From: Nitrospirota bacterium
GTDB taxonomy: Bacteria > Nitrospirota > Thermodesulfovibrionia > Thermodesulfovibrionales > SM23-35
Length of the DNA: 64,000 nucleotides
Direction of reading: 5' to 3'
Assembly (NCBI GenBank): GCA_040753615.1
Contig: JBFMDO010000077.1
Location: 418-64,417, forward strand
Position numbers and translations under genes: made by a program. Below, piece by piece: positions 10,466 to 47,900 of the stretch. Numbering within the stretch: the first letter of the stretch is position 1; each line of letters begins with the position of its first letter. Below the pieces are notes generated by a model. The model saw only the letters and a program-made list of their open reading frames with translations. It was not told where the DNA came from and searched no databases.

Positions 10466-10510
10466 ACCCCCCTTCATCCCCCCTTGATAAGTGGGGAATT
10501 AAAGGGGGGT
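10466..10510. repeat. C-tract/G-tract palindromic element, intergenic copy
   Basis: a cccccc ttcat cccccc ttgataa gtgggg aattaaa gggggg t. Confidence 0.8.
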
Positions 10511-10515
10511 AAGGC

Positions 10516-10567
10516 AAAAGCCTCGCAGTCCCGACTTTACGTCAGGACGAGAATAAGCGAAAATACT
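10516..10567. repeat. 52-bp hairpin repeat, copy A
   Basis: aaaagcctcgcagtcccgactttacgtcaggacgagaataagcgaaaatact; near-identical to 20029-20079. Confidence 0.9.
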
Positions 10568-10650
10568 TTAGCCCCTATTGCATGGGCAGTTACTAAATTG
10601 ATGAGGCAATTTGGCTTATTTCAGATATAATAAAAAAGATAGGTAGATGA

Positions 10651-11829
10651 TTGAAGATGAAAACTGTAATGATAGTTGCTGGTGAAAGCTCGGGTGAATT
10701 ATACGGCTCACTCCTTGCAAAGGCATTAAAAGCCAGATTGCCAGATGTACATATGCTGGGGGTTGGCGGCGAGAAGATGAAAGATGCAGGGGTAGATCTG
10801 ATCGCAAGCACATCAGATGCATTCGGACTTATAGAAGCTGTTTCTGCATACCGTCAGGTTAAGACAGCATTCAAAAAGGCTGTTGAAGCAATTGAAAAAT
10901 TTAAACCAGAAGTTCTTATTCTTATTGATTATCCAGATTTTAATATAAGACTGGCGCGAGTAGCCAGGGCAGCCGGTATAAAGATATTGTATTATGTAAG
11001 CCCGCAGGTATGGGCATGGAGAAAGGGCAGGATAAAACAGATAGCAGAGATTGTTGATAGAATAGCAGTTATACTCCCTTTTGAAGAAAATATATACAGG
11101 GAAGCAGGGGTAAAATGTGAATTTGTAGGACATCCAATACTTGAAGAGATTAAGTCTGTTTTACAAACAGCAAGTAGCAGACAACACCCTGAACTCCGAG
11201 CTCACTTTAAAACCATTCTCGGCTTTGACCCGCGCATGCCTCTGCTATCTCTTTTACCCGGAAGCAGGCCGAGCGAACTGAAACGATTGCTTCCTTTAAT
11301 GTTAGATGTTGTCAGGCAATTTAAGACTGAAGTTAAGGAGTCTGCTGATAAATATCAGATTTGCATCCCTTTAGCTCCAAACACAGAAGAATCAAAATAT
11401 GCTGATTATCTCAACAAGTTAAGGCACGAAGGAGTAGAGATCAAGAAAGGTGAATCCGTCAGGGTGCTCGCTGCATCCGATATAGCTGTAGTCGCTTCTG
11501 GGACGGCAACACTTCAGACTGCGTTGATTGAGGTTCCAATGGTTGTAGTATATAAACTTTCTCCACTCACATATGTACTGGGAAAACTTATTGTGAATGT
11601 AAAATACATCTCGCTTGTTAATATACTTGCTGGCAGAGAGGTTGTGAAAGAGCTCATTCAGAAGAGAGCTAATCCAGAAGAGATAATAAAAGAGATTAAA
11701 AGGATTATTTTTGATATGAAATATAAAGAAGAAATACTTAATAATTATAGATTAATTAAAAAACCCTTCTTGGACAAGAGAACATCAGAAAGGGTTGCCG
11801 AGATGGTAATAGAGATGGCATCAAGATAA
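10651..11829 (+). CDS. lpxB: Lipid-A-disaccharide synthase
   Basis: AGESSGELYG, LIDYPDFN, YYVSPQVWAWR, FVGHP, LLPGSR, VASGTATL. Confidence 0.96.
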   Translation: MKMKTVMIVAGESSGELYGSLLAKALKARLPDVHMLGVGGEKMKDAGVDLIASTSDAFGLIEAVSAYRQVKTAFKKAVEAIEKFKPEVLILIDYPDFNIRLARVARAAGIKILYYVSPQVWAWRKGRIKQIAEIVDRIAVILPFEENIYREAGVKCEFVGHPILEEIKSVLQTASSRQHPELRAHFKTILGFDPRMPLLSLLPGSRPSELKRLLPLMLDVVRQFKTEVKESADKYQICIPLAPNTEESKYADYLNKLRHEGVEIKKGESVRVLAASDIAVVASGTATLQTALIEVPMVVVYKLSPLTYVLGKLIVNVKYISLVNILAGREVVKELIQKRANPEEIIKEIKRIIFDMKYKEEILNNYRLIKKPFLDKRTSERVAEMVIEMASR

Positions 11830-13157
11830 TGTTTCTAATTTATAGCCTTTTATATGTTTTAGCTTTAATTTTTATACTGCCTTTTCAGTATCTGAAAAGA
11901 CCAAAAATCCTCAGAAAAAGATGGCTGAAGGAAAAACTTGGTCTTTTCGAGCTTCCATTCCAACCTCCACACACCTGTTTTAATAAAAGGGATGGAGGGG
12001 GTAGCATCTGGGTTCATGCGGTATCTGTTGGAGAGGTAACAGCATCAATCCCATTGCTCAATAACCTGAGGATGAAATACCCATTAAAAAACCTTATTCT
12101 TTCTACTATTACAGACACAGGACAGAAAATAGCAAAGGAAAAATCGCCTGAAGGAACAGCAGTTGTTTATCTGCCATTTGATATTGCCCTCATCCTGAAT
12201 TCGGTCCTGAAAAAGATAAAGCCAGAAATCCTGATAGTAATCGAGACAGAACTCTGGCCAAATCTCTTCAGGGTGTTTAAAAAAGACAGGATACCTGTAA
12301 TTCTGCTTAATGGAAGGATTTCTGAAAAATCCTTCAAAGGATACAAAAAGATTTCCTTTTTTATGAAAAAAGTCCTTTCTTATGTTGATTTTTTTGGGAT
12401 GCAGAATGAGGAATATACTGAAAGGATAAGAAGTCTCGGTGTAGAAAGTAGCAGGATTATGAATCTGGGAAATTTCAAATTTGATGCAAGACCTCCTCTG
12501 CAAATTCCTGAATGGACACATAAAATAAAAGGACAGGTTATAGTGGCAGGCAGCACACACGAAGGAGAAGAGGAATTAATTACTTCTGCTTATATTGACC
12601 TTAAAAAAGAATTCCCTGATCTGAATCTTATTATTGCCCCAAGACATCCGGAGAGGTTTAAACCTGTAGAAGATATGTTGAAATTAAAAGGGGTTTTATT
12701 TGTAAAGCGTTCAGCCTTTGAAACTCCTAATCCCCCCATCCCCCCTTTAGTAAAGGGGGGTAAGGGGGGATTTTTAGAGTCCCAAATCTTCAAGGGCATT
12801 ATTATCCTCCTTGATACGGTTGGTGAATTATCTGCAGTCTATGGGAGAGCAGATATTACAGTTATTGGCAAAAGCTTTAGAGGATATGGAGGACAGAATC
12901 CCCTTGAACCGGCATTCTGGGGAAAGATAATGATATGCGGTCCTAATATGGAGAATTTCCCTGTTATCAAAGATTTCTACAAAGATGGTGCAGCTATCGA
13001 GGTTGAGGAAGAAGGGCTTTATTCAAAATTAAAGGAACTTTTGATATCACCTGAAAAAGCAAAAGAGATCGGATTAAAAGCACAGGAATTATATAGAAGA
13101 AATTCAGGTGCTGTTGATAAAGCGATAAAGGTTATTCAGAAATATATTTCCCAATAA
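11829..13157 (+). CDS. waaA: Kdo transferase, carrying two in-frame palindrome inserts
   Basis: IWVHAVSVGE, YLPFD, ETELWPN, GNFKFD, AGSTHEGEE, APRHPERF, GGQNPLEPA. Confidence 0.96.
   Translation: MFLIYSLLYVLALIFILPFQYLKRPKILRKRWLKEKLGLFELPFQPPHTCFNKRDGGGSIWVHAVSVGEVTASIPLLNNLRMKYPLKNLILSTITDTGQKIAKEKSPEGTAVVYLPFDIALILNSVLKKIKPEILIVIETELWPNLFRVFKKDRIPVILLNGRISEKSFKGYKKISFFMKKVLSYVDFFGMQNEEYTERIRSLGVESSRIMNLGNFKFDARPPLQIPEWTHKIKGQVIVAGSTHEGEEELITSAYIDLKKEFPDLNLIIAPRHPERFKPVEDMLKLKGVLFVKRSAFETPNPPIPPLVKGGKGGFLESQIFKGIIILLDTVGELSAVYGRADITVIGKSFRGYGGQNPLEPAFWGKIMICGPNMENFPVIKDFYKDGAAIEVEEEGLYSKLKELLISPEKAKEIGLKAQELYRRNSGAVDKAIKVIQKYISQ
12729..12772. repeat. C-tract/G-tract palindrome in frame within waaA
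   Basis: aat cccccc at cccccc tttagtaaa gggggg taa gggggg att, encoding NPPIPPLVKGGKGGF. Confidence 0.9.
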
Positions 13158-13340
13158 GGAATAAAACACCAGCCCAATTCCTAAAAGCTCATGGCATTAT
13201 TGACGATTATAAACCCCTCTATCAGCCTCACATGTTATGAACGAGTACATATTGTTGACAAAAGAGATTTTTTTGTATATGGTTTAATAAGGTTATGTTT
13301 TAACATAAAAAATTATAGTATTTTTAAAAAAGGAGGGGTT

Positions 13341-13763
13341 ATGAAAAAGCAGATGGTTATTCTTATCTTTGCAGTATTAATTATGATGGGAACCGCCGTA
13401 GGTGCGCAGGAGATGCAGAGGCCAGCAGAAATGACTGCGACAGAGTTTGAAGTAGCAAAAATGGTGGTATGTGAGGGGGTCGAGAACAGAGAACCTGTTG
13501 GAGTTGCAGAGAAATTTCCAGTAACCACAGAAAAGGTAATCTGCTTTCTGGATGCCCGAAATATTTCTGCAGATACAGAGATAGAGTTTGTCTGGTATAT
13601 TAATGGAAAAGAAGTAGCTAATGTAACGCTTCCCTTGAAAGAAGGTGCCAGATGGAGAACTTTTTCAAGTAAGACGATAGCAGGAAATACAGGTAATTGG
13701 AAGGTAGAACTTAAGGATTCTGCAGGAAACTCTATAAAGGCTGTTACTTTTACAGTAGAATAA
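13341..13763 (+). CDS. Exported DUF2914-like protein
   Basis: AGGAGG RBS and ATG at 13341; signal peptide; VENREPVG...F, WRTFSSKTI...GNWKVE. Confidence 0.8.
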   Translation: MKKQMVILIFAVLIMMGTAVGAQEMQRPAEMTATEFEVAKMVVCEGVENREPVGVAEKFPVTTEKVICFLDARNISADTEIEFVWYINGKEVANVTLPLKEGARWRTFSSKTIAGNTGNWKVELKDSAGNSIKAVTFTVE

Positions 13764-13800
13764 TTTTATACATTCCAGAAAAAATAATCTAACACAAAAA

Positions 13801-13827
13801 TGTCATTCCGAGTAAAACGAGGAATCT
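13801..13827. repeat. Single REP-like hairpin
   Basis: TGTCATTCCGAGTAAAACGAGGAATCT, recalled as resembling a GTCATTCYGAG...GAATCT dispersed repeat type; one copy here. Confidence 0.45.
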
Positions 13828-14107
13828 GAGGGTAGTTTTTTGCTCTTATGATATTTGCTGAGATATTTATTCACGAGGGTGAGGATCATTAACGGAAGTA
13901 CGAAAGGCAGTGCATTCAAAAAGCAATAATTTACATATCGGCTGAACCTTGACGCAAAGAATATACTTCACTGAACTTGCGTTTGGGTTTCAATTTGTTG
14001 CATGAAAAAAGTCGTGAAAAAAATATATCGAAAACCATATAAAGTTGTGGTAATATATTTAAACAAAAAAGAGTTAAAGCCGTTGATTTTAGAGGGGTTA
14101 AATACAT

Positions 14108-14183
14108 GGGCAGTTAGCTCAGTCGGTAGAGCAGAGGCCTGAAAAGCCTCGTGTCCGCAGTTCGATTCTGCGACTGCCCACCA
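14108..14183 (+). tRNA. tRNA-Phe(GAA)
   Basis: GGGCAGT/ACTGCCC acceptor stem, anticodon arm GAGGC-CTGAAAA-GCCTC, CCA end. Confidence 0.96.
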
Positions 14184-14271
14184 TGATTTTTATTCACTCC
14201 GCTTCTTTGAATCTTATCTTTTATTGTTAAATAGCTATTAAGTTCTTCCCCCCTTCTGATAAAATATCTTC

Positions 14272-15357
14272 ATGGTAGACATTCAGGCAATCACCCCCCA
14301 GATCAAGAGAAACTGTGATATCTCTGACGCAAAATACTGGGGTGCATTTTCTATCTGCACGTTTCTTCTCAAATTAAGAGAACTATATCGTACTGAAAAT
14401 TGTGTAAAACCATGGGAAAAGATTCAGAAAAATGAAATTGATAAATGGATATCGGAAAGGGAGAAACTCTGGAAAAAACTGGAAAAAGAAGACTTTGGAG
14501 ATATTTTTATTGATGGAAATTCTTATAGCCCATTTGAGGTCAAGAAAATTAATGCTGAATTAGAGAAAGACGGATTTATTTACGGCGCTGGGTTGGGAGT
14601 TTATATGAAACCTTCTTTCTTCCTTGCAGACCTCCTATCCAGAAAAACAATACATGGCTATGATGTCTATATTGCAGGTGATGAATATGCGAGAGACCTT
14701 TCAGATTATCCTGCCACGCTACAGGAGAAGGCAATCTTTGTAAGGACAGAGGCTGCAAAGTTGCTCATATGGGAAAAATTTGAAGAACTCAGACTTAGAG
14801 GTATAAAAAGTGCTCCTGAGTATCTTGTATTTGCATTTTTAAAATATAATCTTATGCCTGAAAATGAACTAATAGGTGATATAGCCGAACAGCTTTCTTT
14901 AATTGCATCTTCTGAAATTGATACATATATTTATCACGAAGTTGGTGAAGCTATTGAAGGAGAACAACTCGGAAATGAGTGGCACTCTCTTTTTGCAGAG
15001 CTTTTGTCGTATCGCCGAGCAGAAATCTTTGCAAGAAGGGTTAAAGACCTTTTGTCAGATACATCTGAAAAGGGCATGCTTAAATATATTATTGAAAATG
15101 GAAAAGAAGGCTCACTCGGTTTTTATATTGTATTCCTTGATGGCTACAGAAAGCTTTTATTCCCTGAGATCATGGACGCATTTAAGAAATTTGTCGAAAT
15201 AGGTGACTGGGAAATCATCGAAGATGCACGAAAAACAGGCTATAGCCGTGCGAGGGCATATGTAGATAGTTTGCTCTATATATACAGGAGATATAAATCA
15301 GAAAAGGGTTGGGTTTCAAGATATATAGAAGATGGAATACTCAGCGGAATAGGATAA
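14272..15357 (+). CDS. Conserved hypothetical protein (Sfum_1244-like)
   Basis: NCDISDAKYWGAFSICTFLLKLRELY and IYHEVGE resemble this family, from memory. Confidence 0.65.
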   Translation: MVDIQAITPQIKRNCDISDAKYWGAFSICTFLLKLRELYRTENCVKPWEKIQKNEIDKWISEREKLWKKLEKEDFGDIFIDGNSYSPFEVKKINAELEKDGFIYGAGLGVYMKPSFFLADLLSRKTIHGYDVYIAGDEYARDLSDYPATLQEKAIFVRTEAAKLLIWEKFEELRLRGIKSAPEYLVFAFLKYNLMPENELIGDIAEQLSLIASSEIDTYIYHEVGEAIEGEQLGNEWHSLFAELLSYRRAEIFARRVKDLLSDTSEKGMLKYIIENGKEGSLGFYIVFLDGYRKLLFPEIMDAFKKFVEIGDWEIIEDARKTGYSRARAYVDSLLYIYRRYKSEKGWVSRYIEDGILSGIG

Positions 15358-15362
15358 AATTC

Positions 15363-16643
15363 ATGAAAATCCTGAGAAATAAGAAAGAGATAACTGCCTT
15401 CTTAGAAATTCTGAAAAAACGTGCATCAGGCGGCAGTCAGGAGATTGAGCAGAAGGTTAAGAATATCCTTGATGACGTAAGGCAAAACCGCGATAAGGCA
15501 GTCCTTAAATATACGAGGGCACTTGATTTTCCACAAGCAAAGGACTTAAAAATAACCCCAGATGAAGTGCTGGAATATGCACATAAAGCTGATAAAAAAG
15601 CAGTAAACGCTCTCAAACTTTCTGCAAAAAGGATCAAGGACTTCCATGAAATGCAAAAGGAAAAATCATGGTCTTTTTCTGAAGGCAAAACATTCCTCGG
15701 GCAGATAATATTGCCTCTTGAAAGAGTCGGTGTATATATACCCGGAGGGAAAGCCTCATATCCTTCGACCATTTTAATGAATGTTATTCCTGCACAAGTT
15801 GCAGGTGTAAAAGAAATAGCACTCTGTGTGCCTACTCCTAAAGGAGATATAAATCCTTATGTCATGGCTGTAATAAAATTGCTCGGCATTAAAGAGGTTT
15901 ATGGGATAGGTGGTGCACAGGCAATAGGAGCAATGGCATATGGTACAGAGACAATAAAGAAAGTTGATAAGATTGTAGGTCCTGGAAATATTTATGTAGC
16001 AACAGCAAAAAAGATGGTCTTTGGAGATGTGGATATTGATATGATTGCAGGACCGAGTGAGATACTTGTTATTGCAGATGATTCAGCAAACCCTGATTTT
16101 ATTGCTGCTGATTTATTGAGTCAGGCAGAACATGATGAACTTGCATCAGCTATATTAATAAGTGATTCCAGAAGACTGTCCAGTGCTGTTAACGAAGAAA
16201 TCGAAAGACAGATATGTAATTTAACGAGACAGGAGATTGCAAGAAAATCTATTAATAATTATGGAGCAATAATAATTACAAAAGATTTAAAAGAAGCTGC
16301 TGAAATTTCTAACTATATTGCACCTGAACATCTTGAGATAATGACAAAAAATCCAAAGAAACTTTTACCCCTGATCAAAAACGCCGGCGCGATATTTCTG
16401 GGGAAATGGTCAACCGAGGCACTGGGTGATTATTCAGCAGGTCCGAATCATACACTTCCAACAAGTGGAACAGCAAGATTTTCATCACCTCTTGGAGTCT
16501 ATGATTTTGTCAAACGGTCAAGTCTGTTGAGTTTTGATAAGAATGGATTTATGAAACTTGCAAAGACAGTTAAGGCAATTGCAGATATCGAAGGCTTGGA
16601 TGCCCATGCTAATGCTATTGTTGTCAGAGAAAAACATAAATGA
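15363..16643 (+). CDS. hisD: Histidinol dehydrogenase
   Basis: VGVYIPGGKASYPS, IVGPGNIYV, IDMIAGPSE, SQAEHD, APEHLE, GDYSAGPNHTLPT. Confidence 0.97.
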   Translation: MKILRNKKEITAFLEILKKRASGGSQEIEQKVKNILDDVRQNRDKAVLKYTRALDFPQAKDLKITPDEVLEYAHKADKKAVNALKLSAKRIKDFHEMQKEKSWSFSEGKTFLGQIILPLERVGVYIPGGKASYPSTILMNVIPAQVAGVKEIALCVPTPKGDINPYVMAVIKLLGIKEVYGIGGAQAIGAMAYGTETIKKVDKIVGPGNIYVATAKKMVFGDVDIDMIAGPSEILVIADDSANPDFIAADLLSQAEHDELASAILISDSRRLSSAVNEEIERQICNLTRQEIARKSINNYGAIIITKDLKEAAEISNYIAPEHLEIMTKNPKKLLPLIKNAGAIFLGKWSTEALGDYSAGPNHTLPTSGTARFSSPLGVYDFVKRSSLLSFDKNGFMKLAKTVKAIADIEGLDAHANAIVVREKHK

Positions 16644-16686
16644 TTGCAGGGTGGACTTAAACCCAACATGCAATTTCGGGGTAAGA

Positions 16687-17142
16687 TCAGAGTCTCTTTA
16701 TCCTCTCGATTATCTCGGAAGTCGAAACTCCCTCTATATATGGAAGACTGTAAGTCTCTTTTACAATGTCAGAGCCAACAATATTTTCTTTCTTCCAGTC
16801 GCCACCTTTGACGATCACATCAGGCTGAAGGAGCTTAATTAACTCATATGGTGTTTCTTCATTAAAGAGGGTTACATAATCCACCATCTCGAGTGAAGAT
16901 AAAACCTCTGCTCTATATTCTTGAGGATTAATTGGGCGATTTGGTTTTATTGCTGAAACAGACCTGTCAGAGTTTAATCCAACAATAAGCAAATCTCCGA
17001 GCTTTTTTGCCTCTTTGAGATACCTGACATGTCCAATATGAATAATGTCAAAACAGCCATTGGTAAAGACGATCTTTTTCCCTCCATTTTTTAGCCTTTT
17101 AACAGCCTCTTTTAGTTCATTCCAATTAAGTATCTTGCCCAT
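16687..17142 (-). CDS. rfaE2: D-glycero-beta-D-manno-heptose 1-phosphate adenylyltransferase
   Basis: VFTNGCFDIIHIGHVRYL, VGLNSD, VKGGDW; probable start at MGKIL. Confidence 0.92.
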   Translation of the reverse strand: MGKILNWNELKEAVKRLKNGGKKIVFTNGCFDIIHIGHVRYLKEAKKLGDLLIVGLNSDRSVSAIKPNRPINPQEYRAEVLSSLEMVDYVTLFNEETPYELIKLLQPDVIVKGGDWKKENIVGSDIVKETYSLPYIEGVSTSEIIERIKRL

Positions 17143-17149
17143 AAAGATA

Positions 17150-17242
17150 AAGTAAAATTTAAAAAGCAAAATGTAAAATTACAATTCAAAACTTAAAAAT
17201 AAATCTCCAGAGTTTTTAATTTTTACCTTTTAATTTTAATAT
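17150..17242. repeat. Hairpin with inverted 7-nt-periodic arms
   Basis: Left aagtaaa atttaaa aagcaaa atgtaaa attacaa ttcaaaa cttaaaa; right tttaatt tttacct tttaatt ttaatat; the right arm encodes the NUDIX C-terminus. Confidence 0.75.
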
Positions 17243-17659
17243 TGCCTTCTCTATCATCTCCTTCTCCCCTTTGTAACTTGCCTTTTTCAGCGCCTCATCA
17301 ACAGAAAACCACACAACATCATCCACTTCCCAGTCGTGGTCTGAGATGTCGCCAGATTCGTACTCCAGGAGGAAAAAATGTACAGTTTTTTTACACTTTG
17401 CATTATCTTCTTTTATATAAAACCAGTATGTTATTTCTCCTAATTTTTCTCTAATTTTACCCTTAAGTCCAGTTTCTTCTGCAACTTCTCTGAGGGCAGT
17501 TTTTTCAGGGGCTTCTCCTTTATTAATAAGTCCCTTTGGAAGTCCCCATGCCCGACCACCCTTTGTTGCCACCATAGCTATTTCTATAATATTATCTTGT
17601 CTTCTGAATATTACCCCGCCTGAGGATATCTGGGTCTTTAAAGCAGATGGTTTCATCAT
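17216..17659 (-). CDS. NUDIX hydrolase
   Basis: Nudix box LPKGLINKGEAPEKTALREVAEETG. Confidence 0.92.
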   Translation of the reverse strand: MMKPSALKTQISSGGVIFRRQDNIIEIAMVATKGGRAWGLPKGLINKGEAPEKTALREVAEETGLKGKIREKLGEITYWFYIKEDNAKCKKTVHFFLLEYESGDISDHDWEVDDVVWFSVDEALKKASYKGEKEMIEKAILKLKGKN

Positions 17660-18726
17660 GGAAAAGTTTTTCCTGTAATCAATCTTATGATGTCATTATA
17701 TAGTGCAAATGCCATAATAGTGAGTATGAGGGCAAGTCCTATCCTCTGGCTGACTGCGATGAATTTTTCATTTAATGGTTTTCTTCTTATTGCCTCGATC
17801 CCGAGAAACAATATATGGCCGCCGTCGAGAATCGGGATGGGAAGCAGATTGAGTACGCCAATGTTAATACTTATAATAGCCATAAACAAGAAAAAATTCA
17901 TAAGACCCCTCGATGCCTGTTCTCCTGCCATCTGTACAATAAGTATGGGACCTCCTATAGTGTCTGCTGGTATAACCCTCTGGATAAGTTTAATAACAGA
18001 TACGACTGTTAATACTGTTATATCCCATGTTCTGATAATGCTACCTTTTAATGCAGCGATAAAACCTTCCTTTTTTATGAAGGTATTCTCAGAAGGCTTT
18101 ATTCCAATAAGCCCAATCTCTTTTTCATCCCCGAAAATATTTTTTATCTTCATCTTCTCAGGCGTTATTATCTTTGTGAAAATATTACCATCTCTTTCTA
18201 TCCTGAAATTGAGCGACTTACCAGGATTGTTATGAATAATTTCTGCCATCTCGTCCCATTGATTTATAGTAGTATCGTCAATCCCTGTAACCTTGTCTCC
18301 CTTTGCAAGACCTGAGAGTGAAGCAGGTGAATTATCCATAACCTCACCCACATCCGGAAGCAATACAGGGACCCCGGCTAAGAAGATAAAGAAAAAGATA
18401 GTAATAGCGAAAACCATGTTAAATAATGGCCCAAAAAATACTATTAAAAATCTCTTCCATACAGGCTGATATTTATATGCCAACCGTTTTTCTTCTTCTT
18501 TTAATTCCTCTCCGGGTTCTTCGCCGAGCATCTTTACATAACCACCGAGAGGTACTGATGAAAGAAGGTATTCGGTATCGCCATATTTTTTCCCAATAAG
18601 TTTTGGCCCAAATCCGAGCGAAAATTTTTTAACCTTAACCCGTGTCAGCTTTGCTAATAAAAAATGACCTAACTCGTGTACGAATATTATTATTCCGAGA
18701 AGGATTATTGCTGATAAAAATGTCAT
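17656..18726 (-). CDS. rseP: RIP metalloprotease RseP
   Basis: HELGH, PDZ domain, NLLPIPILDGG. Confidence 0.96.
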   Translation of the reverse strand: MTFLSAIILLGIIIFVHELGHFLLAKLTRVKVKKFSLGFGPKLIGKKYGDTEYLLSSVPLGGYVKMLGEEPGEELKEEEKRLAYKYQPVWKRFLIVFFGPLFNMVFAITIFFFIFLAGVPVLLPDVGEVMDNSPASLSGLAKGDKVTGIDDTTINQWDEMAEIIHNNPGKSLNFRIERDGNIFTKIITPEKMKIKNIFGDEKEIGLIGIKPSENTFIKKEGFIAALKGSIIRTWDITVLTVVSVIKLIQRVIPADTIGGPILIVQMAGEQASRGLMNFFLFMAIISINIGVLNLLPIPILDGGHILFLGIEAIRRKPLNEKFIAVSQRIGLALILTIMAFALYNDIIRLITGKTFP

Positions 18727-20090: not shown

Positions 20091-20126
20091 GGTAACCATA
20101 GTTTATGAATAATCTGGGCTAAAATC

Positions 20127-38293: not shown

Positions 38294-38501
38294 CAGGAAG
38301 GGGAACAGAATACATAATTGGTAAGGCGAAGGGCTAAGAAAGGGCTCACAATGGACTAATTACAGGCAATGAATGAGGCAAGAATGATGTAATCGGCACA
38401 GACAGTTTCTGCCAAATTTGTTAAAAATGCAAGATGCGGTCTGGTATTTTGAAGGACAAGAAATGATTTGTAACAATTTAAAACAGGACACCGAATAAAC
38501 C

Positions 38502-38750: not shown

Positions 38751-38768
38751 TGAAGCCATGAACAAAAT

Positions 38769-39380
38769 TTAAGCCCTCCTTACAAACTCCCCAAAACTTT
38801 TTAATAGCCTCAGTCCTGATTCCTGACTCTTTTCAGGATGAAATTGTGTTGCAAAGATATTATCCTTCCATATCATTGATGTGAAATCTATCCCATACTC
38901 AGTCGTAGCCGCGATTACCTCATTGTCATAAGGAACGACATAAAAGGAATGGACAAAATAGAAAAATGCCCCATCATTTATCTCATTGAGGATTGGTGGT
39001 CTCTTTGAAATTTTTATATTGTTCCAGCCCATATGCGGAACCTTAAGATTTACCTGAAATCTAACAACTTTTCCTTTTAATATATCAAACCCTTTGTAAA
39101 TACCGAATTCTTCTGATTCTGTAAATAAGACCTGAAGTCCAAGACATATACCGAGATAAGGCTTTCCTTTCTGGATTGACCTTATAATTGGTTCTATGAG
39201 GAACATATCTTCCATGTTTCTCATGCAATCCCTGAAGGCGCCAACCCCGGGAAGCACAACTGCCTTTGCATCATCTATTGCATTCGGGTGCGATACAACT
39301 TTTGCATCTACACCAACCTTTAAAAATCCTTTTTCAACACTCCTAAGATTACCCATTCCATAATCAACAATTGCAATCAT
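38769..39380 (-). CDS. hisH: Imidazole glycerol phosphate synthase glutaminase subunit
   Basis: DYGMGNLRSV, LPGVGAF, GICLGLQ, PHMGWN, QFHPEKS. Confidence 0.97.
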   Translation of the reverse strand: MIAIVDYGMGNLRSVEKGFLKVGVDAKVVSHPNAIDDAKAVVLPGVGAFRDCMRNMEDMFLIEPIIRSIQKGKPYLGICLGLQVLFTESEEFGIYKGFDILKGKVVRFQVNLKVPHMGWNNIKISKRPPILNEINDGAFFYFVHSFYVVPYDNEVIAATTEYGIDFTSMIWKDNIFATQFHPEKSQESGLRLLKSFGEFVRRA

Positions 39381-39457
39381 AAATTATTATATTAGATTGG
39401 AAAAATATTTTCTTTGCTCTCTTTACAATTTCATATGTTAGATGGTAGAGTTTTTTT

Positions 39458-39835
39458 ATGAAATATGGTGAAAAGACAATAAAGAAGGCTGACTTAGAGA
39501 TATGGGATAATCCAAATCCTGAACGTAATTATGAGATTAATATTAGTTTCTCTGAGTTTACGTGCTTATGTCCCAGATCAGGATATCCTGATTTTGCTAC
39601 AATAAAGATAAATTATACGCCTGATAAAAAAATTGTTGAACTGAAATCACTCAAACTTTACTTGAATTCATTTCGAAGTGTTTATATGTCTCACGAAGAA
39701 GCAACCAATAAAATATATTCGGAACTTCTTAAAAGATTAAAGCCAAGATTCTTAGAGGTAATCGGAGATTTCAATCCACGTGGAAATGTGAAGACTCTTG
39801 TAAGAGCTTCTTCAGATACCAAATGTAAGAAATGA
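39458..39835 (+). CDS. queF: PreQ0 reductase
   Basis: [34 protein letters not shown]. Confidence 0.95.
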
Positions 39836-39838
39836 CTT

Positions 39839-40087
39839 ATGGATTTTTCTGAAATTATAAACAATATCGTTTCCTTTGCCAAAACATCTCCCATAATTGC
39901 AATTCCTATCGGTCTGTTAATTATCTTCCTTATATGGAGAAATCCAAAATTTTTCCTTAAGGTCACAATCTTTGTATTAATAATAGCTGTTGTGTTTTAT
40001 ATGATTATGAGTATGGCTTCTTCAGGAAAATCAAAAAAGGAAGATCTTATTCACGGAAGAGAACGCCTGATGGAAAATACACCTTAA
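39839..40087 (+). CDS. Small membrane protein
   Basis: 82 aa with two hydrophobic segments. Confidence 0.65.
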   Translation: MDFSEIINNIVSFAKTSPIIAIPIGLLIIFLIWRNPKFFLKVTIFVLIIAVVFYMIMSMASSGKSKKEDLIHGRERLMENTP

Positions 40088-40120
40088 AAACAGTCACTTC
40101 TCAATGCCCTCTCGTTGAAA

Positions 40121-40266
40121 TTGACAGGATCCAGAAATTTATGATTTAATAATCTACCTTTAAAAGTAGCCCGGTGAGGCTAAAAAGGTAAAGGAGGCAG
40201 CGTGAGCTGCAAAAACAAAACCATAATAAGCCTTCCATTTGTTTTGAAGATGGAAGGTTTTTTTAT
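40121..40266 (+). promoter_or_regulatory. pyr operon promoter and PyrR-binding attenuator
   Basis: TTGACA at 40121; PyrR loop ACCTTTAAAAGT-AGCCCGGTGAGGCT-AAAAAGGT (40156-40189); terminator AAGCCTTCCAT...ATGGAAGGTTTTTTT (40228-40264). Confidence 0.85.
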
Positions 40267-40289
40267 GTCTGTTTATTTGAGCAAAGAAA

Positions 40290-40832
40290 ATGCATAACGA
40301 GTTAATGAACAAAAAAGATATTGAGAGGGCATTGATGAGGATAGCCCATGAGATAATCGAAAAAAACAGAGGCATAGAGAATCTTTGTCTTGTTGGGATA
40401 CAAAGAGGTGGGGTATATCTTGCAAAAAGACTTGCCTCAAAGATAAAGCTTATTGAGAAAAAGGATATTCCTGTGGGGTCACTCGATATAGCATTTTACA
40501 GGGATGACCTGAATATAAGAAAGGGTCAGCCGACTGTCAGGAAAACAGAGGTGCCATTTGAGATAACAGATTTAAAAGTAGTCCTCATTGATGATGTCCT
40601 TTTTACTGGAAGATCAATCAGGGCAGCAATGGATGCATTATTTGACATTGGAAGACCTGCTGCTATACAGCTCGCAGTCCTTATTGACAGGGGACACAGG
40701 GAACTTCCAATAAAGGCTGATTATGTTGGAAAAAATGTACCAACTGCATTAATTGAAAATATTGAGGTTGAGTTCGAAGAAGAGGGTCTTGAAGACAGGG
40801 TAATCCTCGAGAAACCAGAAAAAGGTGAATAA
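40290..40832 (+). CDS. pyrR: Pyrimidine regulatory protein / UPRTase
   Basis: RIAHEI, LDIAFYRDD, IDDVLFTGRS, DRGHRELPI. Confidence 0.96.
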   Translation: MHNELMNKKDIERALMRIAHEIIEKNRGIENLCLVGIQRGGVYLAKRLASKIKLIEKKDIPVGSLDIAFYRDDLNIRKGQPTVRKTEVPFEITDLKVVLIDDVLFTGRSIRAAMDALFDIGRPAAIQLAVLIDRGHRELPIKADYVGKNVPTALIENIEVEFEEEGLEDRVILEKPEKGE

Positions 40833-40835
40833 AAG

Positions 40836-41756
40836 ATGTTAACCATGAAAGATCTGCTCGGCATAAAAGAACTCTCTGTGGAAGAGATAAACCTCATCCT
40901 TGATACTGCTGCAGGTTTTAAAGATGTTCTCGGAAGGGATATAAAAAAGGTTCCTGCCCTGCGTGGTAAGACCACAGTTAATCTATTTTTTGAACCTTCA
41001 ACAAGGACAAGGACATCTTTTGAACTTGCAGCGAAAAGGCTTAGCACAGATGTTATAAACTTTTCTGTGCCCACAAGCAGTGTAGTGAAAGGCGAGAGTC
41101 TGATTGACACGGCTCTGACTGTTCAGGCGCTTGGCGCAGATTTTATAATAATAAGACATTCTTCATCAGGTGTACCACATCTCCTTGCTAAAAAACTCGT
41201 GGCATCAATCATAAATGCAGGAGACGGTACAAATGAGCATCCTACACAGGCGCTCCTCGACGCCTTCACCATAAAGGAAAAGAAAGGAAGAATAGAAGGC
41301 ATTAAGATAGCAATCATAGGAGACATAGCCCATAGCAGGGTTGCGAAATCAAATATATATTGTCTTACAAAGCTCGGGGCAAAAGTAAGAGTGATCGGCC
41401 CTCCGACTTTGATACCGAGAGAAGTGGATGACTTAGGGGTTGAGGTCTTCCATAGCATGGAAGCAGGTCTAAAAGATGTTGATGTTTTAATGATGTTAAG
41501 GATACAGTTGGAAAGACAGGGCAAGGGGTTCTTCCCATCTGTTGAGGAATATTCCAAAAACTGGGGACTCACATCAGAACGGCTTTCATTTTCAAAGGGT
41601 GATGCAATAGTCATGCATCCCGGACCAATGAACAGGGGGGTTGAAATAGTCTCAGAGATTGCTGATGGCCCAAAATCAGTAATCCTCGATCAGGTTACAA
41701 ACGGACTTGCTGTGAGGATGGCAGTCATGTATCTGCTCGCAGGAGTAAAGAGATGA
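40836..41756 (+). CDS. pyrB: Aspartate carbamoyltransferase
   Basis: [28 protein letters not shown]. Confidence 0.97.
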
Positions 41757-43069
41757 AGATATTAATCAAGAACGGACATGTTATAGACCCGTCTCAGGGG
41801 ATTGATGGGATTGGGGATATCTTGATCGAAGGCGGGAAGATAAAAGAAATAAGAATACAGAACACAGCTACCCCCCCTAATCCCTCCCTTACTAAAGGGG
41901 GGTATTGTGGGGTAAATTCAGAATCCAGAACTATAGATGCAACCGGTTTGTACGTCTTTCCCGGTCTTATTGACATGCATGTTCATCTAAGGGAACCCGG
42001 TTATGAATATAAGGAGACCATAAAAACAGGCACTATGGCTGCTGTTAAAGGTGGTTTTACAACTGTATGTTGCATGCCAAACACATCTCCTGTTAATGAC
42101 CATGCAAGTGTAACAGAATTCATAATAAGAAAGGCGATACAGGAAGGCGCCTGCACAGTTCTGCCTATTGGCGCTATAACAAAGGAACAAAAAGGCGAAG
42201 AACTCGCAGAGATAGGCACTATGGTAAAAGAAGGTTGTATTGCTTTTTCTGATGACGGAAGACCTGTGATGAACAGCCTTATTATGAGGAGGGCACTTGA
42301 GTATTCAAAGGCATTTAATGTGCCGATAATTGCTCATTGCGAGGATATAACCCTTTCTGAAGAAGGAGTAATTAATGAAGGTTTGATATCTACAACACTC
42401 GGACTCAGAGGTATCCCGGCTGAGGCAGAGACAATAATGGTCTTCAGGGATATTTTATTGGCAGAACTTACAGGTGGCAGACTGCACATTGCTCATGTCT
42501 CAACAGAAGGCTCTGTAAGATTAATCCGGGATGCAAAAAAACGGGGTGTTAATGTAACAGCAGAGACATGTCCTCACTATTTTACTCTTACAGAAGATGC
42601 TGTTAAAGATTACAATACGAATGCAAAAGTGAATCCGCCTCTAAGAACTGACCGTGATATCAATGCCATAAAAGAGGGATTAAAAGATGGTGCTATTGAT
42701 GTGATTGCAACAGACCACGCCCCCCATCATATGGATGAAAAACTAAGAGAGTTTGACAGGTCACCCTCTGGCATATCAGGACTCGAAACAGCATTGGGGT
42801 TGAGTCTAAGGCTCGTCCACGAAGGTATCCTTTCGTTGAATCAACTTATCGAGAAGATGGCACTTAACCCAGCTATGATTTTGAATATCAGGAAAGGCAC
42901 ACTTAAAATAGGCTCTGATGCGGATATTACAGTAGTGGATATTAATAAAGAATGGACAGTAAATACTGACAAGTTCGTATCAAAAGGTAGAAATACGCCA
43001 TTTGAAGGATGGTTTTTGAAAGGGATGTCAGCTTTGACAATATGTAGGGATAAATTATATGAGTGGTAA
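41753..43069 (+). CDS. pyrC: Dihydroorotase with an in-frame insert
   Basis: [34 protein letters not shown]. Confidence 0.96.
41870..41915. repeat. C-tract/G-tract palindrome in frame within pyrC
   Basis: a ccccccc taat ccctccc ttactaaa gggggg tattgt gggg, encoding [13 protein letters not shown]. Confidence 0.85.
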
Positions 43070-44195
43070 GGCATTATTAGTCCTTTCCGATGGAATTGTC
43101 TTTGAAGGAAATAGTTTTGGCGATGAAGGTGAGACTATTGGTGAGGTGGTATTCAATACCTCTATGACAGGTTATCAGGAGATACTCACTGACCCTTCAT
43201 ATAAAGGACAGATTGTTACTATGACTTATACACAGATAGGCAATTATGGGATTAATGAAGAAGATATAGAATCTCACAACGGCCCAAAGGTAGAGGGTTT
43301 TGTTGTTAAAGAATATATTGATTTCCCAAGCAACTGGAGATATTCCATGTCTCTCGGTCAGTATCTCAAAGATCACAAAGTAGTCTCTATAGAAGGTATT
43401 GATACAAGGGCATTAACAAGACATCTAAGAAATCATGGCGCTCAGATGGGGATAATCTCAACCATAGACCTGAATCCCGAAAGTCTTTTAGAAAAAGTAA
43501 GATCACATCCTGCTATCTCGGCATTTGATCTGGTAAAAGAGGTAACAACAAAAAATATCTATTCATGGAAAGAGGGTTGTTGGAAGTGGGACGAAACTCT
43601 ACCTCCCCCCCTTACCAAGGGGGGGCAGGGGGGGGGTAAAGTCGTTGTTTACGATTTCGGAGTAAAGTTTAATATCCTGAGAAATCTATATGACGCTGCT
43701 TTTGACATAACTGTTGTGCCAGCGCAAACACCTGCTGAAAAGGTTCTGGAGATGAACCCTGACGGTATTGTCCTTAGTAATGGCCCTGGAGACCCTCAAA
43801 CAGTTAGTTATGCAATTGAAAATACAAAAAAGCTCATGGGGAAAAAACCAGTACTTGGAATCTGTCTTGGCCATCAGATACTCGGTCTTGCAATGGGCGG
43901 AAGGACATATAAACTCAAATTTGGACATCACGGAGGCAACCACCCTGTAAAGGACTTAGCCACAGGCAGGGTTGAGATTACATCACAGAATCATAATTAC
44001 TGTGTTGATATTAAAAGTCTTCATGGACAGGTCAGACTTACACACAAAAATCTATACGATGGCACTGAAGAAGGCATGCAGCATGTTGAACTGCCTATCT
44101 TTTCAGTCCAGCATCATCCAGAAGCAGGGCCGGGACCGAATGATTCAGCACATCTATTCAAAAGATTCAGGGAGATGATACAGAGGGGATGTTAG
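43059..44195 (+). CDS. carA: Carbamoyl-phosphate synthase small subunit
   Basis: FNTSMTGYQE, SNGPGDP, GICLGHQ, GHHGGNHP, HHPEAGPGP. Confidence 0.97.
   Translation: MSGKALLVLSDGIVFEGNSFGDEGETIGEVVFNTSMTGYQEILTDPSYKGQIVTMTYTQIGNYGINEEDIESHNGPKVEGFVVKEYIDFPSNWRYSMSLGQYLKDHKVVSIEGIDTRALTRHLRNHGAQMGIISTIDLNPESLLEKVRSHPAISAFDLVKEVTTKNIYSWKEGCWKWDETLPPPLTKGGQGGGKVVVYDFGVKFNILRNLYDAAFDITVVPAQTPAEKVLEMNPDGIVLSNGPGDPQTVSYAIENTKKLMGKKPVLGICLGHQILGLAMGGRTYKLKFGHHGGNHPVKDLATGRVEITSQNHNYCVDIKSLHGQVRLTHKNLYDGTEEGMQHVELPIFSVQHHPEAGPGPNDSAHLFKRFREMIQRGC
43601..43637. repeat. C-tract/G-tract palindrome in frame within carA
   Basis: acct ccccccc ttaccaa ggggggg ca ggggggggg t, encoding PPPLTKGGQGGG. Confidence 0.85.
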
Positions 44196-44198
44196 TAA

Positions 44199-44690
44199 AT
44201 GGAATTGGATTTTCGAAAAATATTTACGGAGCTTAATAAATTAAAGATCGACTATCTTGTTGTGGGAGGGTTGGCAGTTAATTTTTATGGTGTTCCGAGA
44301 TTGACTTATGATATTGACCTGATGATATTGCTACAAGCAGAAAATATCAAAAAATTAGTTTCAAAACTTACTAATTGGGGTTACCGCCCAAAAGTTCCGG
44401 TTAATCCAGTGGAACTTGCTGATGAAGCAAAAAGAAATTCGTGGATAAAAGAAAAAGGGATGAAGGCAATGAATTTTTACAATGAGAAATCACCTATCGG
44501 AGAGATTGACATTGTTTTTGATTCACCGATTCCTTATAGTGAATTGAAAAGTAGAGCTGTTATAATTGAGATTGAAGGAGGAAAAATCCCTACTGTCTCA
44601 ATCCATGACCTTATTAAGCTTAAACAGAAATCAGGTCGTAAGCAGGACATTGCAGATGTTGAATATCTGAAGATAATTCTGGAGAGATAA
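44199..44690 (+). CDS. Nucleotidyltransferase-fold protein (DUF6036-like)
   Basis: VVGGLAVNFYGVPRLTYDID, LIKLKQKSGRKQDIADV. Confidence 0.8.
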   Translation: MELDFRKIFTELNKLKIDYLVVGGLAVNFYGVPRLTYDIDLMILLQAENIKKLVSKLTNWGYRPKVPVNPVELADEAKRNSWIKEKGMKAMNFYNEKSPIGEIDIVFDSPIPYSELKSRAVIIEIEGGKIPTVSIHDLIKLKQKSGRKQDIADVEYLKIILER

Positions 44691-44917
44691 TGAAAGAACG
44701 GAGAAAGGGATTCACCCAGTTAGAGAAAGCCACTGACAGAGGTCAAAGTTCTCTAAAGGGTTTCACCTATACTGTAAGTCAAGAACAGTTGGATGATTAT
44801 CGCAAATGGTCAATGGAACGCAGGTTGAAATGGCTTTATTATGCAAATAAAATGAGAAAAGGTCTTCCAAAGAAAACTATCGAGATTCAGGAGATGTTTC
44901 GTGAGGGAAAGATATAG
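44690..44917 (+). CDS. Small basic protein coupled to the nucleotidyltransferase (TA-partner-like)
   Basis: 75 aa, TAATG overlap; ERRLKWLY. Confidence 0.65.
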   Translation: MKERRKGFTQLEKATDRGQSSLKGFTYTVSQEQLDDYRKWSMERRLKWLYYANKMRKGLPKKTIEIQEMFREGKI

Positions 44918-44976
44918 GATAAATAATGGTAATAGAGTGTCAGAGTTTCTAAAAACAATGACATTTTGAGGAATCT

Positions 44977-47900
44977 ATGCCAAAAAGAACTGACATCAAA
45001 AAAATATTATTAATAGGCTCAGGTCCTATAATCATAGGACAGGCGTGTGAGTTTGACTATTCAGGGACACAGGCATGTAAGGCTCTTCGAGAAGAGGGTT
45101 ATAAGGTAATTCTCGTCAATTCTAATCCTGCAACTATTATGACAGACCCTGAGATAGCTGATGTAACCTACATAGAGCCCTTAACTGCTGAGGTCATTGA
45201 GATGATTATTGATAAAGAGCGTCCTGACGCCCTTCTTCCGACAATGGGTGGGCAAACTGCCTTAAATTTAGCAGTTGAACTCTCTAACAAAGGCATCCTC
45301 TCTAAATATAGAGTTGAACTCATCGGTGCAAAGATCGATGCAATTAAAAAGGCAGAGGACAGAGAACTTTTTAAGGATGCCATGAAAAAGATAGGACAGG
45401 AAGTTCCAAAATCTGCTTATGTGGGATTATTAAAGGAAGGACTTGAGGTGATAGAAGACATTGGATTTCCTGCAATCCTCAGGCCTTCATTCACCCTCGG
45501 AGGCACTGGCAGCGGCATAGCTTATAACATAGAAGAATATAAATATCTGCTCGAAAAAGGCTTAAAACTCAGCCCTGTAAGCCAGGTTCTTGTTGAGGAG
45601 TCAGTCCTCGGCTGGAAGGAATACGAGCTTGAGGTCATGAGGGATGTAAAAGACAACGTTGTTATTATTTGCTCAATAGAAAACTTTGACCCAATGGGAA
45701 TACATACAGGAGATTCGATTACTATTGCTCCTGCCCAGACACTCACTGATAAAGAATATCAAAGGATGCGTGATGCAGCTATCGCAATTATACGAGAGAT
45801 AGGTGTTGATACAGGAGGCTCAAATATCCAGTTTGCCCTTAATCAGAGAAACGGCAGGATGGTAGTCATAGAAATGAATCCGAGGGTATCGAGGAGTTCA
45901 GCGCTTGCATCAAAGGCAACGGGCTTTCCAATAGCAAAAATTGCAGCAAAACTTGCGGTTGGTCTTGCACTCGATGAGATACCAAATGATATTACCAAGG
46001 AAACACCCGCGTCATTTGAACCTACAATAGATTATGTTGTAACAAAGTTTCCGAGATTCGCATTCGAAAAATTTCCTGAAGCAGACCCAACACTTACCAC
46101 ACAGATGAAATCTGTTGGAGAAGTGATGTCAATCGGAAGAACTTTCAAGGAGTCTTTGCAGAAGGCTATAAGGAGTATCGAGATTGATAGCTATGGGTTT
46201 GAAGAGAGCAATGCTGATATAAATAAAATAAAGGCAAAACTTAAAACACCCGGCGCTGAGCGAATCTGGTATATAGCACAGGCTATCAGAGAAGGCATGA
46301 GTATTCAGGAGATATATGAACTTACATGGATAGACCCATGGTTTCTGCAAAATATCAAGCAGATAATAGATATGGAAGCTATATTAAAAAGTCAGAAGTT
46401 AAAACTCAAAACTCAAGATCTAAAAATCTCTGATGCCCTAACTGCTAACTCCGAACTTGTGAAATTGCTGATGGAAGCAAAGGGCTTTGGTTTTTCAGAT
46501 AGAAGAATAGCAGATCTGTTAAATGTAGAAGAGTCTGATATCAGACATTTAAGAAAACAATATAATCTGCATGCTGTATACAAAATGGTTGATACCTGTG
46601 CTGCAGAATTTGCTGCATATACACCATATTTTTATTCAACGTATGAAAAACCATTTTATAAGATTAATCCCCCCACCCCCCCTTTACTAAAGGGGGGCGA
46701 GGGGGGATTTGTTGAGTGTGAGGCTAATCCAAGTAACAGAAGAAAGATTCTTATCCTCGGCGCAGGCCCTAACAGGATAGGACAGGGCATAGAGTTTGAT
46801 TATTGCTGTGTTCATGCAGTATTTGCTCTCAGAGAACTGGGATATGAGACTATAATGGTAAATTGTAATCCTGAGACCGTCAGTACAGACTATGATACTG
46901 CTGATAGACTTTATTTTGAACCTCTTACAATAGAGGATGTGCTGAATATTATAAAAACAGAAAAACCCGAAGGGGTTATAGTCCAGTTTGGGGGGCAGAC
47001 ACCGCTAAAACTTGCCGTACCGCTTGAAAAAGAAGGCGTGAAGATTCTTGGCACATCACCTGATTCTATAGATCGTGCAGAAGACAGAAAAAGGTTTAAA
47101 GAACTCCTCCATAAACTCAATCTCAAACAGGCTGAGAGTGATACAGCAATGTCTATAGAAGAAGCCCTTACTGCTGCTTCAAGGATAGGTTATCCTGTGA
47201 TGGTAAGGCCATCTTATGTGCTCGGTGGCAGGGCAATGGAGATAGTATATGATGAAAAAGCCTTGATGGAATATATAGAGCGGGCAGTCAAGGCATCTCC
47301 TGAACATCCTGTCCTTATTGATAAATACCTCGAGGATGCCATAGAACTTGATGTTGATGCAATTTCTGATGGAAAAGATGTAATTATAGGAGGCGTGATG
47401 GAGCATATCGAGGAAGCAGGTATTCATTCAGGGGATTCAGCATGTTCTCTACCACCACATTCCTTGCCTGCGGAAACTATCGAGGAAATAAAAAAACAGA
47501 CAAAGGTTCTCGCAAAAGAGCTTAATGTAATAGGATTAATGAATGTCCAGTTTGCTGTGAAGGGCAGCGACATTTATATACTTGAAGTAAATCCAAGGGC
47601 ATCAAGGACAATTCCATTTGTGGGGAAAGCAACAGGCGTGCCGCTTGCAAAACTTGCTGCTAAAGCAATGATCGGCAAGACATTAAACGAACTCGGCATC
47701 ACAGAAGAAAAACTTATACGGCATATCGCAGTTAAAGAGGCTGTTTTCCCATTCGACAGGTTTTCCGGAGTTGATACAATACTTGGTCCTGAGATGAAAT
47801 CCACAGGTGAGGTAATGGGGATAGATAGTAATTTTGGCATTGCATTCGGGAAATCCCAAATAGCGTGTGGCAACAGAATACCTCTGTCAGGAAAGATATT

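Follow-up and report, generated by a model that had tools for sequence, protein, structure and literature searches.

How does one and the same proline- and glycine-rich peptide come to be written into several unrelated core enzymes? The question is raised by a 64,000-nt stretch of DNA from a Nitrospirota bacterium (GenBank assembly GCA_040753615.1, contig JBFMDO010000077.1, positions 418 to 64,417), called here the window, which belongs to a metagenome-assembled genome (MAG) of 2.29 Mb, 38.5% GC and 78 contigs. A preliminary description, made from the letters of the window, had reported six copies of a small palindrome of C and G runs, five of them in frame in waaA (twice), pyrC, carA and carB. 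All six were found at the coordinates given there. We propose, with a probability of roughly 0.68, that they belong to a very small non-autonomous insertional repeat family, in which an inserted copy would add 42 nt and whose sites would undergo repeated turnover. This reading draws on the anatomy of the element, its abundance across the genome, a comparison of empty and filled sites, and the behaviour of the same protein loops in relatives.

The preliminary description had placed all six copies under a single consensus. They are the same kind of element, but flanks, spacers and loop divide them into two subtypes. Type 1 (waaA site 2 and carB) has AAT..ATT flanks, spacers of 2-3 nt and TTTNNNAAA; type 2 (the intergenic and pyrC copies, and probably the carA copy) has (A)CA/TA..TA flanks, spacers of 4-7 nt and a TTNNNAA loop. 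The copies and their host genes, the latter named by NCBIfam, are as follows.

10464..10510, no strand assigned: intergenic type-2 copy, partly decayed; hairpin fold -13.6 kcal/mol (DNA), profile match
11829..13157, + strand: host gene waaA (Kdo transferase)
11954..12005, + strand: waaA site 1, decayed remnant; peptide LPFQPPHTCFNKRDGGGS; pLDDT <50 at residues 43-56
12729..12773, + strand: waaA site 2, intact type 1; AAT, 38-nt core at 12732-12769 and ATTT; fold -19.4 kcal/mol, z -3.7
41753..43069, + strand: host gene pyrC (dihydroorotase)
41870..41915, + strand: pyrC copy, decayed type 2, near the N-terminus, in a loop hypervariable among all relatives
43059..44195, + strand: host gene carA
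43601..43637, + strand: carA copy, partial, in an interdomain linker; read as LPPPLTKGGQGGG
44977..48297, + strand: host gene carB
46666..46710, + strand: carB copy, intact type 1; AAT, 38-nt core at 46669-46706 and ATTT; fold -19.7 kcal/mol, z -5.5

It can be seen that two of the six copies, waaA site 2 and carB, are intact, the other four being partial or decayed. The core at waaA site 2 is C6-AT-C6-TTTAGTAAA-G6-TAA-G6, translated as N-PPIPPLVKGGKGGF, and that of carB is C6-A-C7-TTTACTAAA-G6-CGA-G6; oriented by their spacer asymmetry, the two point the same way and differ in the loop triplet alone. Each of them, as a single strand, forms a hairpin of two tiers with a folding energy of about -19.5 kcal/mol, and 0 of 200 shuffles folded as well; the hairpins of the pyrC, carA and intergenic copies are weaker than those of this intact pair. 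In carA an inner hairpin (C7-TTACCAA-G7) and a right arm (CA-G9) are left and the left outer arm is gone. The intergenic copy, ACA-C6-TTCAT-C6-TTGATAA-GTGGGG-AATTAAA-G6-TA, sits between two diverging genes, an ArnT-like one (8317-10422, - strand) and lpxB (10651-11829, + strand). The copy at waaA site 1 is too decayed to be detected by nhmmer; the stretch is nevertheless a real remnant, because 9 of 14 aligned sister-genus waaA genes hold a full or partial copy there, and the right junction GGGGGG-ATT/ATC-TGG (the slash marks the junction) is common to nearly all of these copies and to the remnant. The four clear coding copies read PPLVKGG, PSLTKGG, PPLTKGG and PPLLKGG. An insertion of about 22 residues relative to E. 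coli CarB had been pointed out. The alignment gives 21 residues between E. coli residues 549 and 550 (..YSTYEE/ECEANPS.., contiguous in E. coli), so located that the copy separates the oligomerisation domain from the second ATP-grasp half.

The main type reads AAAT-C6-TYR-C6-TTT-NNN-AAA-G6-AT-G6-ATTT, in which the core of 38 nt contains one 3-nt and one 2-nt spacer. The spacer consensus was obtained from 77 oriented copies of this dominant class, taken from the window's own genome and from other phyla. The 3-nt spacer has T at position 1 in 76 of the 77, Y at position 2 in 71 and R at position 3 in 76, and the opposite spacer is AT in 48. The asymmetry amounts to a conserved 3x2 internal loop in a two-tier hairpin, the element being an imperfect palindrome; among copies with 3+3 spacers, 10 of 43 are perfectly complementary. 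In genomes of 55-69% GC, each position of the flanks AAAT (5') and ATTT (3') matches the consensus in 85-100% of copies, and the composition at positions +-5 is that of the background; for the AAAT positions the figure is 87-100%, GC-rich genomes included. The whole unit measures 42-46 nt.

One reading frame through the element contains the TAG or TAA in the centre of TTTAGTAAA or TTTACTAAA, and the two remaining frames are open. Both open frames are used in the own genome; one gives PP-x-PP-L-x-K-GG-x-GG and the other a different peptide. The preliminary description had stressed that copies in both orientations encode the same peptide. The peptide is indeed the same, but this is automatic, since by palindromy both strands offer the same three frames and hence the same peptides; moreover, the waaA site-2 and carB copies named as opposite have one orientation when judged by their spacers. 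In AT-rich genomes the orientation of genic copies relative to the gene was 29:20 (n=49), which is not significant. A strand bias relative to host genes was rejected, the 29 versus 20 being accounted for by the number of open phases. Proline is always encoded by CCC or CCT and glycine by GGG or GGx, despite the 38% GC of the genome, and the reading frame is intact across every copy.

Is the element confined to the window? A strict pattern search of the 2.29-Mb genome gave 37 copies, and a profile search with nhmmer gave 86 loci at E<1e-3. The reversed strict pattern had 0 matches across 31 genomes, and the abundance of the pattern is far above chance. Hundreds of copies per genome had been extrapolated from the six; the count is lower, roughly 90 per genome, and as the 86 loci correspond to a density of about 1 per 27 kb, the window is about twofold enriched. 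Inside called open reading frames (ORFs) lie 67 of the 86 loci (78%), across 55 different genes, in a genome that is about 88% coding; strict type-1 copies are genic in 23 of 24 cases. The positions of the copies within these 55 unrelated genes are unrelated and have no regular relation to gene ends. Ten genes hold two or three copies each, five neighbouring pairs are less than 100 bp apart against 0.49 expected (maximum 3 in 500 randomisations), and identical 38-mers recur at no fewer than six unrelated loci. A dispersed, non-autonomous, hairpin-forming family read through in frame, as first suggested from the six copies, is supported.

An independent Logan assembly of the source run contains one 14-kb contig that spans 41500-47500 with 0 differences and 0 gaps and reproduces three of the window's copies, so the assembler did not create the homopolymer runs. 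At orthologous sites the element is also present in independent MAGs, and the sequence of the carB copy occurs with other flanks in further contigs of the same groundwater study. In the assembled contigs of the source runs no joints that would bear on presence/absence polymorphism were seen. No family in Rfam matches the element, and no published description of the repeat family was found in full-text literature searches, peptide strings included.

What exactly is inserted can be read at WaaA site 2. In a sister genus this site is empty, act-ttg-aac/ttc-gaa-ctt (T-L-N/F-E-L), and in the own genome and two relatives it is filled, act-tct-aat-[CCCCCC...GGGGGGATTT]-tcc-gaa-ctc. The gain is exactly 42 nt or 14 codons (12732-12773) after the Asn AAT codon. 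The target duplication that the preliminary description had proposed to look for at such sites is absent here, and flank profiles together with complementarity and identity tests at +-4 to +-6 gave no direct repeat beyond AAAT/ATTT. Cores of 38 nt dominate the genic copies (17 of 25 in the own genome). Across phyla the ratio of 38-nt to 39-nt cores is 35:14 in genes (n=51) and 7:3 outside them. Since this ratio is equal in and out of genes, the 38-nt length is intrinsic, and frame selection as its origin was ruled out. As 38+2, 38+6 and 38+8 are not multiples of three, a 2-bp duplication is excluded for the 38-nt class. Nitrospirota orthologues with empty sites were found for CarA, WaaA site 2, a D-aminoacylase-like protein and Tgt; the loops of Tgt, the D-aminoacylase-like gene, CarA, CarB, PyrC and WaaA site 1 are too rearranged between genera to give clean ones.

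To see the same loops in relatives, six host proteins (CarB, CarA, WaaA, PyrC, the D-aminoacylase-like protein and Tgt) were aligned from 30 other genera of the same order. The shared loops are empty in some genera, and in others they contain intact, nested, tandem, halved or decayed copies, or unrelated repeats. In CarB the stretch from YSTYExPFYK to ECEANPS is hypervariable: three other genera have the element there, one of them as three consecutive copies, others have low-complexity repeats unrelated to it, and in some the stretch is short. CarA has the short form WKWCVVEKGEAVLKVVVYDFG in four genera, the element at the same place in three others and a different repeat (EVRSQKSEV-like) in about eight. 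PyrC, Tgt and the D-aminoacylase-like protein vary in the same manner. At WaaA site 1, where the own copy is decayed, the 9 of 14 sister-genus genes mentioned above have intact, nested, tandem or halved copies. The placement in loops and in a CarA linker suggested earlier was confirmed. The AlphaFold model of WaaA has a mean pLDDT of 82.9 and falls below 50 solely at residues 43-56 and 300-315, which are the two insert sites, both coil, and the CarA and CarB copies are located in interdomain linkers. Judged from these alignments, the sites of the element are insertion hot spots. The earlier view that core enzymes are being actively remodelled in this lineage was overstated for the window, whose copies are old: their sites are also occupied in other genera, and four of the six are decayed or partial.

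Other repeats were seen in these loops. In CarA, CarB, PyrC, Tgt and WaaA of relatives (loci L002-L096 and L244-L302) we noticed peptides of repeat origin such as EVRSQKSEV/AEVQSSKFKVQS-like, SSNPRILESSNP, LNSSLVTxxSSL and QNTEHRTQNT/QDTGYRIQD. The peptide H[AE]SCI[AV]NRES is present in the own Tgt (G000:C45, about 50760-50800) and in the CarB of one relative, its DNA being palindromic around ATGCAT. The permissive sites seem to be shared by several different families of small invading repeats. In the D-aminoacylase-like gene of a relative (G012, L270) a direct repeat of 12 nt, GGGGGATTTGGT, bounds a 75-nt segment beside the element; this segment may have arisen by duplication or be a further element that targets the end of the hairpin.

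Orthologous copies are more alike than their surroundings. At WaaA site 2, four-fold-degenerate third positions within the element are identical in 8/8 to 9/9 cases for each pair of the three carriers; outside the element the same carriers are 45-58% identical at such positions. At WaaA site 1, three genomes whose WaaA is 59-73% identical to the own protein have AAATCCCCCCTTCCCCCCTTT-NNN-AAAGGGGGG-NNN-GGGGGGATT, in which all family-conserved bases are identical and loop and spacer bases alone differ. As the surrounding WaaA loop residues are unalignable, the conserved bases of the element are not drifting, and the decayed and halved copies at the same sites mean that there is no universal constraint. 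We infer that the intact conserved bases reflect either turnover at the site or selection.

The element is not limited to this species. Among the 31 genomes of the order it was found in 14, with 1 to about 210 pattern matches per carrier (both strands counted), and the distribution is patchy, many close relatives having 0 pattern matches. In the collection of species-representative genomes, at least 119 stretches match the exact full pattern. Hosts among the matches listed are Nitrospirota (38-68% GC), Methylomirabilota, Nitrospinota, Desulfobacterota/Syntrophia, Alpha-, Beta- and Gammaproteobacteria, Dehalococcoidia, an anammox planctomycete and one Asgard MAG. The exact pattern was also found in 7 IMG/VR viral contigs. 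Because the hosts are all MAGs, single odd hosts may be binning errors; the breadth across phyla as a whole is not.

Taken together, these results suggest the following course of events. A copy would insert directly 3' of (A)AAT, adding 42 nt (14 codons) and no target-site duplication; as the gain is divisible by three and only one frame has stops, insertion into a gene leaves the frame unbroken. The host protein would gain N-PP-x-PP-[L/F]-x-K-GG-x-GG-[F/I/L]. Insertions survive only in permissive surface loops and linkers, as is shown by the low-confidence coil at the sites in the model and by loops that are hypervariable in all relatives. Each copy would retain AAAT on one strand and generate a second one on the opposite strand (ATTT), so that occupied sites would become targets. 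Such sites would be hit repeatedly, and subsequent slippage or deletion between the C and G runs would give the nested, tandem, halved and 'refreshed' copies, while deletion between C or G runs would remove older parts. The nested and tandem forms directly show repeated hits at one loop, and turnover would account for the hot spots as well as for copies at orthologous sites that are more intact than expected. Turnover is preferred to locus-by-locus function, the main alternative.

As to the enzyme, a trans-acting protein that is HUH-like in its logic might recognise the single-stranded hairpin. A hairpin-specific single-strand enzyme acting in trans is the most plausible mechanism, since it would fit a hairpin with an asymmetric internal loop, a boundary of four fixed bases and no sign of duplication; we hold this part tentatively, with the odds somewhat against it. 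A bolder extension is that the element is a self-renewing insertion module, which re-seeds loops, is kept by turnover or selection and has been spread over phyla and viruses by a new single-strand, hairpin-specific mechanism. This we regard as possible but doubtful. If true, a 14-codon parasite continuously rewrites the surface loops of CarA, CarB, PyrC, WaaA, Tgt and PurL in uncultured anaerobes, and the fixed asymmetric internal loop is the recognition key of a new class of mobilising enzymes.

Several points weigh against the proposal of an insertional repeat family with turnover. The insertion junction comes from a single clean comparison, and the relatives compared are all of different genera, none with near-identical DNA. 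Tgt, the D-aminoacylase-like protein and WaaA site 1 show no simple 42-nt difference. Cores of 39 nt are also in frame in genes (14 of 51), and for them a fixed '+4' rule fails. A function for host or element, instead of turnover, might just as well lie behind the strong conservation of C and G runs in orthologous copies. No mobilising enzyme was found in our searches. Finally, translation of the insert is deduced from intact frames, and all sequence data come from MAGs.

The first alternative to be considered is that the element is a sequence of the repetitive extragenic palindromic (REP) kind, mobilised by a RAYT or by a Y1 (HUH) transposase of the IS200/IS605 type. A hairpin with a conserved asymmetric internal loop, the lack of target duplication and the conserved 5' tetranucleotide AAAT would suit such an enzyme. 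We searched the 31 genomes with Pfam Y1_Tnp and scanned 20 Y1 loci for the element. Y1_Tnp genes were present in 26 of the 31 genomes and in 14 of 14 carriers (Fisher p = 0.048), and their number correlated with copy number (rho 0.60, p = 4e-4). However, the correlation is confounded by phylogeny: within the family it drops to rho 0.37 (p = 0.12), and one genome with 22 Y1 genes has 0 copies. The preliminary description had expected a RAYT or TnpA(Y1) gene flanked by the same hairpin, but none of the 20 Y1 genes, taken from the own genome and three high-copy genomes, has the element within about 3 kb, and tblastn with Y1 proteins over 126 cross-phylum loci (about 0.9 Mb around 133 copies) gave no Y1 homologue. 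The own genome has just two such genes, a truncated IS200 tnpA and a short RAYT-like ORF that falls below the cut-off of NCBIfam, and the flanks of these two contain none of the element's hairpins. The element ends in AAAT/ATTT and the GTAG/CGTC tag is absent. The conserved AAAT/ATTT are also paired in the stem, unlike the cleavage sites of IS608, which lie in single-stranded flanks.

A relative with zero copies (G001, L032:1390-1470) has a many-copy IS200-like element, which bears between its left end and tnpA half of a G/C-run element, CCCCCTTTTGAAAAGGGGGTTTGGGGGATT. This half element speaks for a Y1 transposase, but the end hairpins of the IS200-like element, CCCCGC(C)GTCTCTGCGG(C)GGGG, are unlike the element in sequence. 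Linkage to RAYT or IS200 was rejected on the Y1 loci and the cross-phylum copies, and mobilisation by such a transposase is considered unlikely. Of the HUH/REP-type mobile hairpin first envisaged, a mobile hairpin tolerated in loops is right in kind, and HUH/REP, though appealing as a mechanism, is unproven.

Secondly, the element might be kept by selection, as a structural signal in DNA or RNA (a protein-binding site or an mRNA pause or stability hairpin) or as a useful Pro/Gly loop. The same positions are invariant across phyla at 30-69% GC, spacer and loop bases drifting toward host composition, and four-fold-degenerate sites in orthologous copies are unchanged while the rest of the gene diverged. 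Against this, decayed or halved copies are common at orthologous sites (own waaA site 1, pyrC, carA and several relatives), and the positions in the 55 genes follow no rule. Many close relatives do without the element, its two frames give different peptides, and Rfam has no match. Such selection seems rather improbable to us.

A conventional MITE (a miniature transposable element with inverted repeats), that is, two terminal inverted repeats (TIRs) of a DDE transposon back to back with a short (AT) target duplication, would account for the near-perfect palindrome, and AAAT..ATTT can be parsed as AA-[AT]-core-[AT]-TT. But most in-frame genic copies have 38-nt cores, and 38+2=40 nt cannot be divided by three; the gain in the clean case is 42 nt, and beyond the palindrome no direct-repeat signal was seen. 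A search of the own genome for solo half-elements gave one clean case, and no insertion sequence (IS) ends of such a kind. Nor would a symmetric dimer site on duplex DNA be expected to show the conserved 2-versus-3-nt spacer asymmetry. The DDE/TIR model was rejected on the near-absence in the own genome of solo half-elements to serve as IS ends, and a MITE is very improbable. Membership in REP/RAYT, in IS200-derived elements or in classical MITEs is not supported. An ancestral protein motif or a homopolymer or assembly artefact has a negligible chance: the peptide does recur at the same positions in some orthologues and C and G homopolymers are error-prone in sequencing, but intergenic copies have the same DNA, the Pro and Gly codons are fixed in a 38% GC genome, relatives have empty sites, the genome has further copies, the independent assembly is identical, every frame is intact and the element is in independent MAGs of other studies.

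Some larger repeats contain the core. In the Nitrospira MAG VGWY01000041 (L145:1897-1987 and 3350-3440) it is nested in a 91-nt palindrome, GGGGACTGTCCC...GGGACTGTCCCC, two direct copies of which flank a nagA-like gene with an in-frame copy of its own. The two 91-mers differ in the loop triplet alone, AGT versus ACT, which suggests flipping of the loop. The own genome has, outside the window, 12 near-identical copies of a composite of about 105 nt, ATGAAACAAACATGTCACATAGTGACACAAATGATAATGAAAAAAAT-[38-nt core]-ATTATCAGGTGAAAA (for example G000:C9:34990-35090, C45:4170-4270 and C24:24830-24930). Some are in frame in genes and others are at the 5' ends of genes, where AGGTGA could be a ribosome-binding site. 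Just upstream of genes (G000:C16, C47, C58, C73, C2 and C23) a motif ATTTTCAGGTGAAA follows either of two conserved sequences of 30 nt, acaggtcggggcatgacagttgagaaaggg or tgtcgagcacggaatgacgaattgaggagt; it may be another repeat or a leader element with the right end of the composite.

The closest known phenomenon is the Rickettsia palindromic element (RPE). RPEs are reportedly palindromic repeats that lie in frame in Rickettsia genes; they are described as roughly 100-150 bp, AT-rich and confined to Rickettsia. The present element resembles them as a non-autonomous palindromic family, in frame in genes, which adds an extra surface peptide and has no known associated transposase. It differs in adding only 42 nt, in its C6/G6 runs, fixed asymmetric internal loop and AAAT/ATTT boundary, in occurring in many phyla and in viral contigs, and in its repeated hits and turnover at the same loops; the two were set apart by the description of RPEs, no RPE sequence being aligned. 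Bacterial MITEs, of which the QMITEs of Coxiella are said to be an example inserted in frame, are likewise small non-autonomous repeats able to extend ORFs, but have terminal inverted repeats and target duplications and are usually 100-400 bp. With IS200/IS605 the element would have in common that insertion takes place 3' of a specific tetranucleotide and leaves no target duplication, and that it depends on hairpins that are imperfect, some of their bases being unpaired. IS200/IS605 elements, however, have distinct left and right ends and cleavage outside the hairpins, whereas here one hairpin is the whole element, its conserved tetranucleotides are within the stem, and no cognate TnpA was found. 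REPs are extragenic, have a GTAG or CGTC tag and flank a RAYT gene (Di Nocera et al. 2013, PMC3733652). Like REPs and the bacterial interspersed mosaic elements (BIMEs), the present element is an imperfect palindrome of 20-40 nt, rich in G+C, that has many copies and tends to be clustered, and recognition of a hairpin is plausible for both. Unlike REP/RAYT, it is 78% intragenic, ends in AAAT/ATTT and flanks no RAYT-like gene.

For those who annotate genomes or run MAG pipelines, the finding, if it holds, is a warning that PPxPP..KGGxGG segments and some 'hypothetical' peptides derive from repeat DNA. It would also supply natural maps of permissive insertion sites in CarA, CarB, PyrC, WaaA and Tgt, and, in a 38-nt hairpin with AAAT at its boundary and an internal loop of 3x2, a sharply defined substrate with which to look for a new mechanism of mobilisation. 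To our knowledge, in-frame palindromic repeats have so far been essentially a Rickettsia curiosity. If the present reading holds, an element of 14 codons does likewise in essential enzymes of free-living uncultured bacteria, with its motif across many phyla, and such repeats would be a general source of loop insertions in protein evolution.

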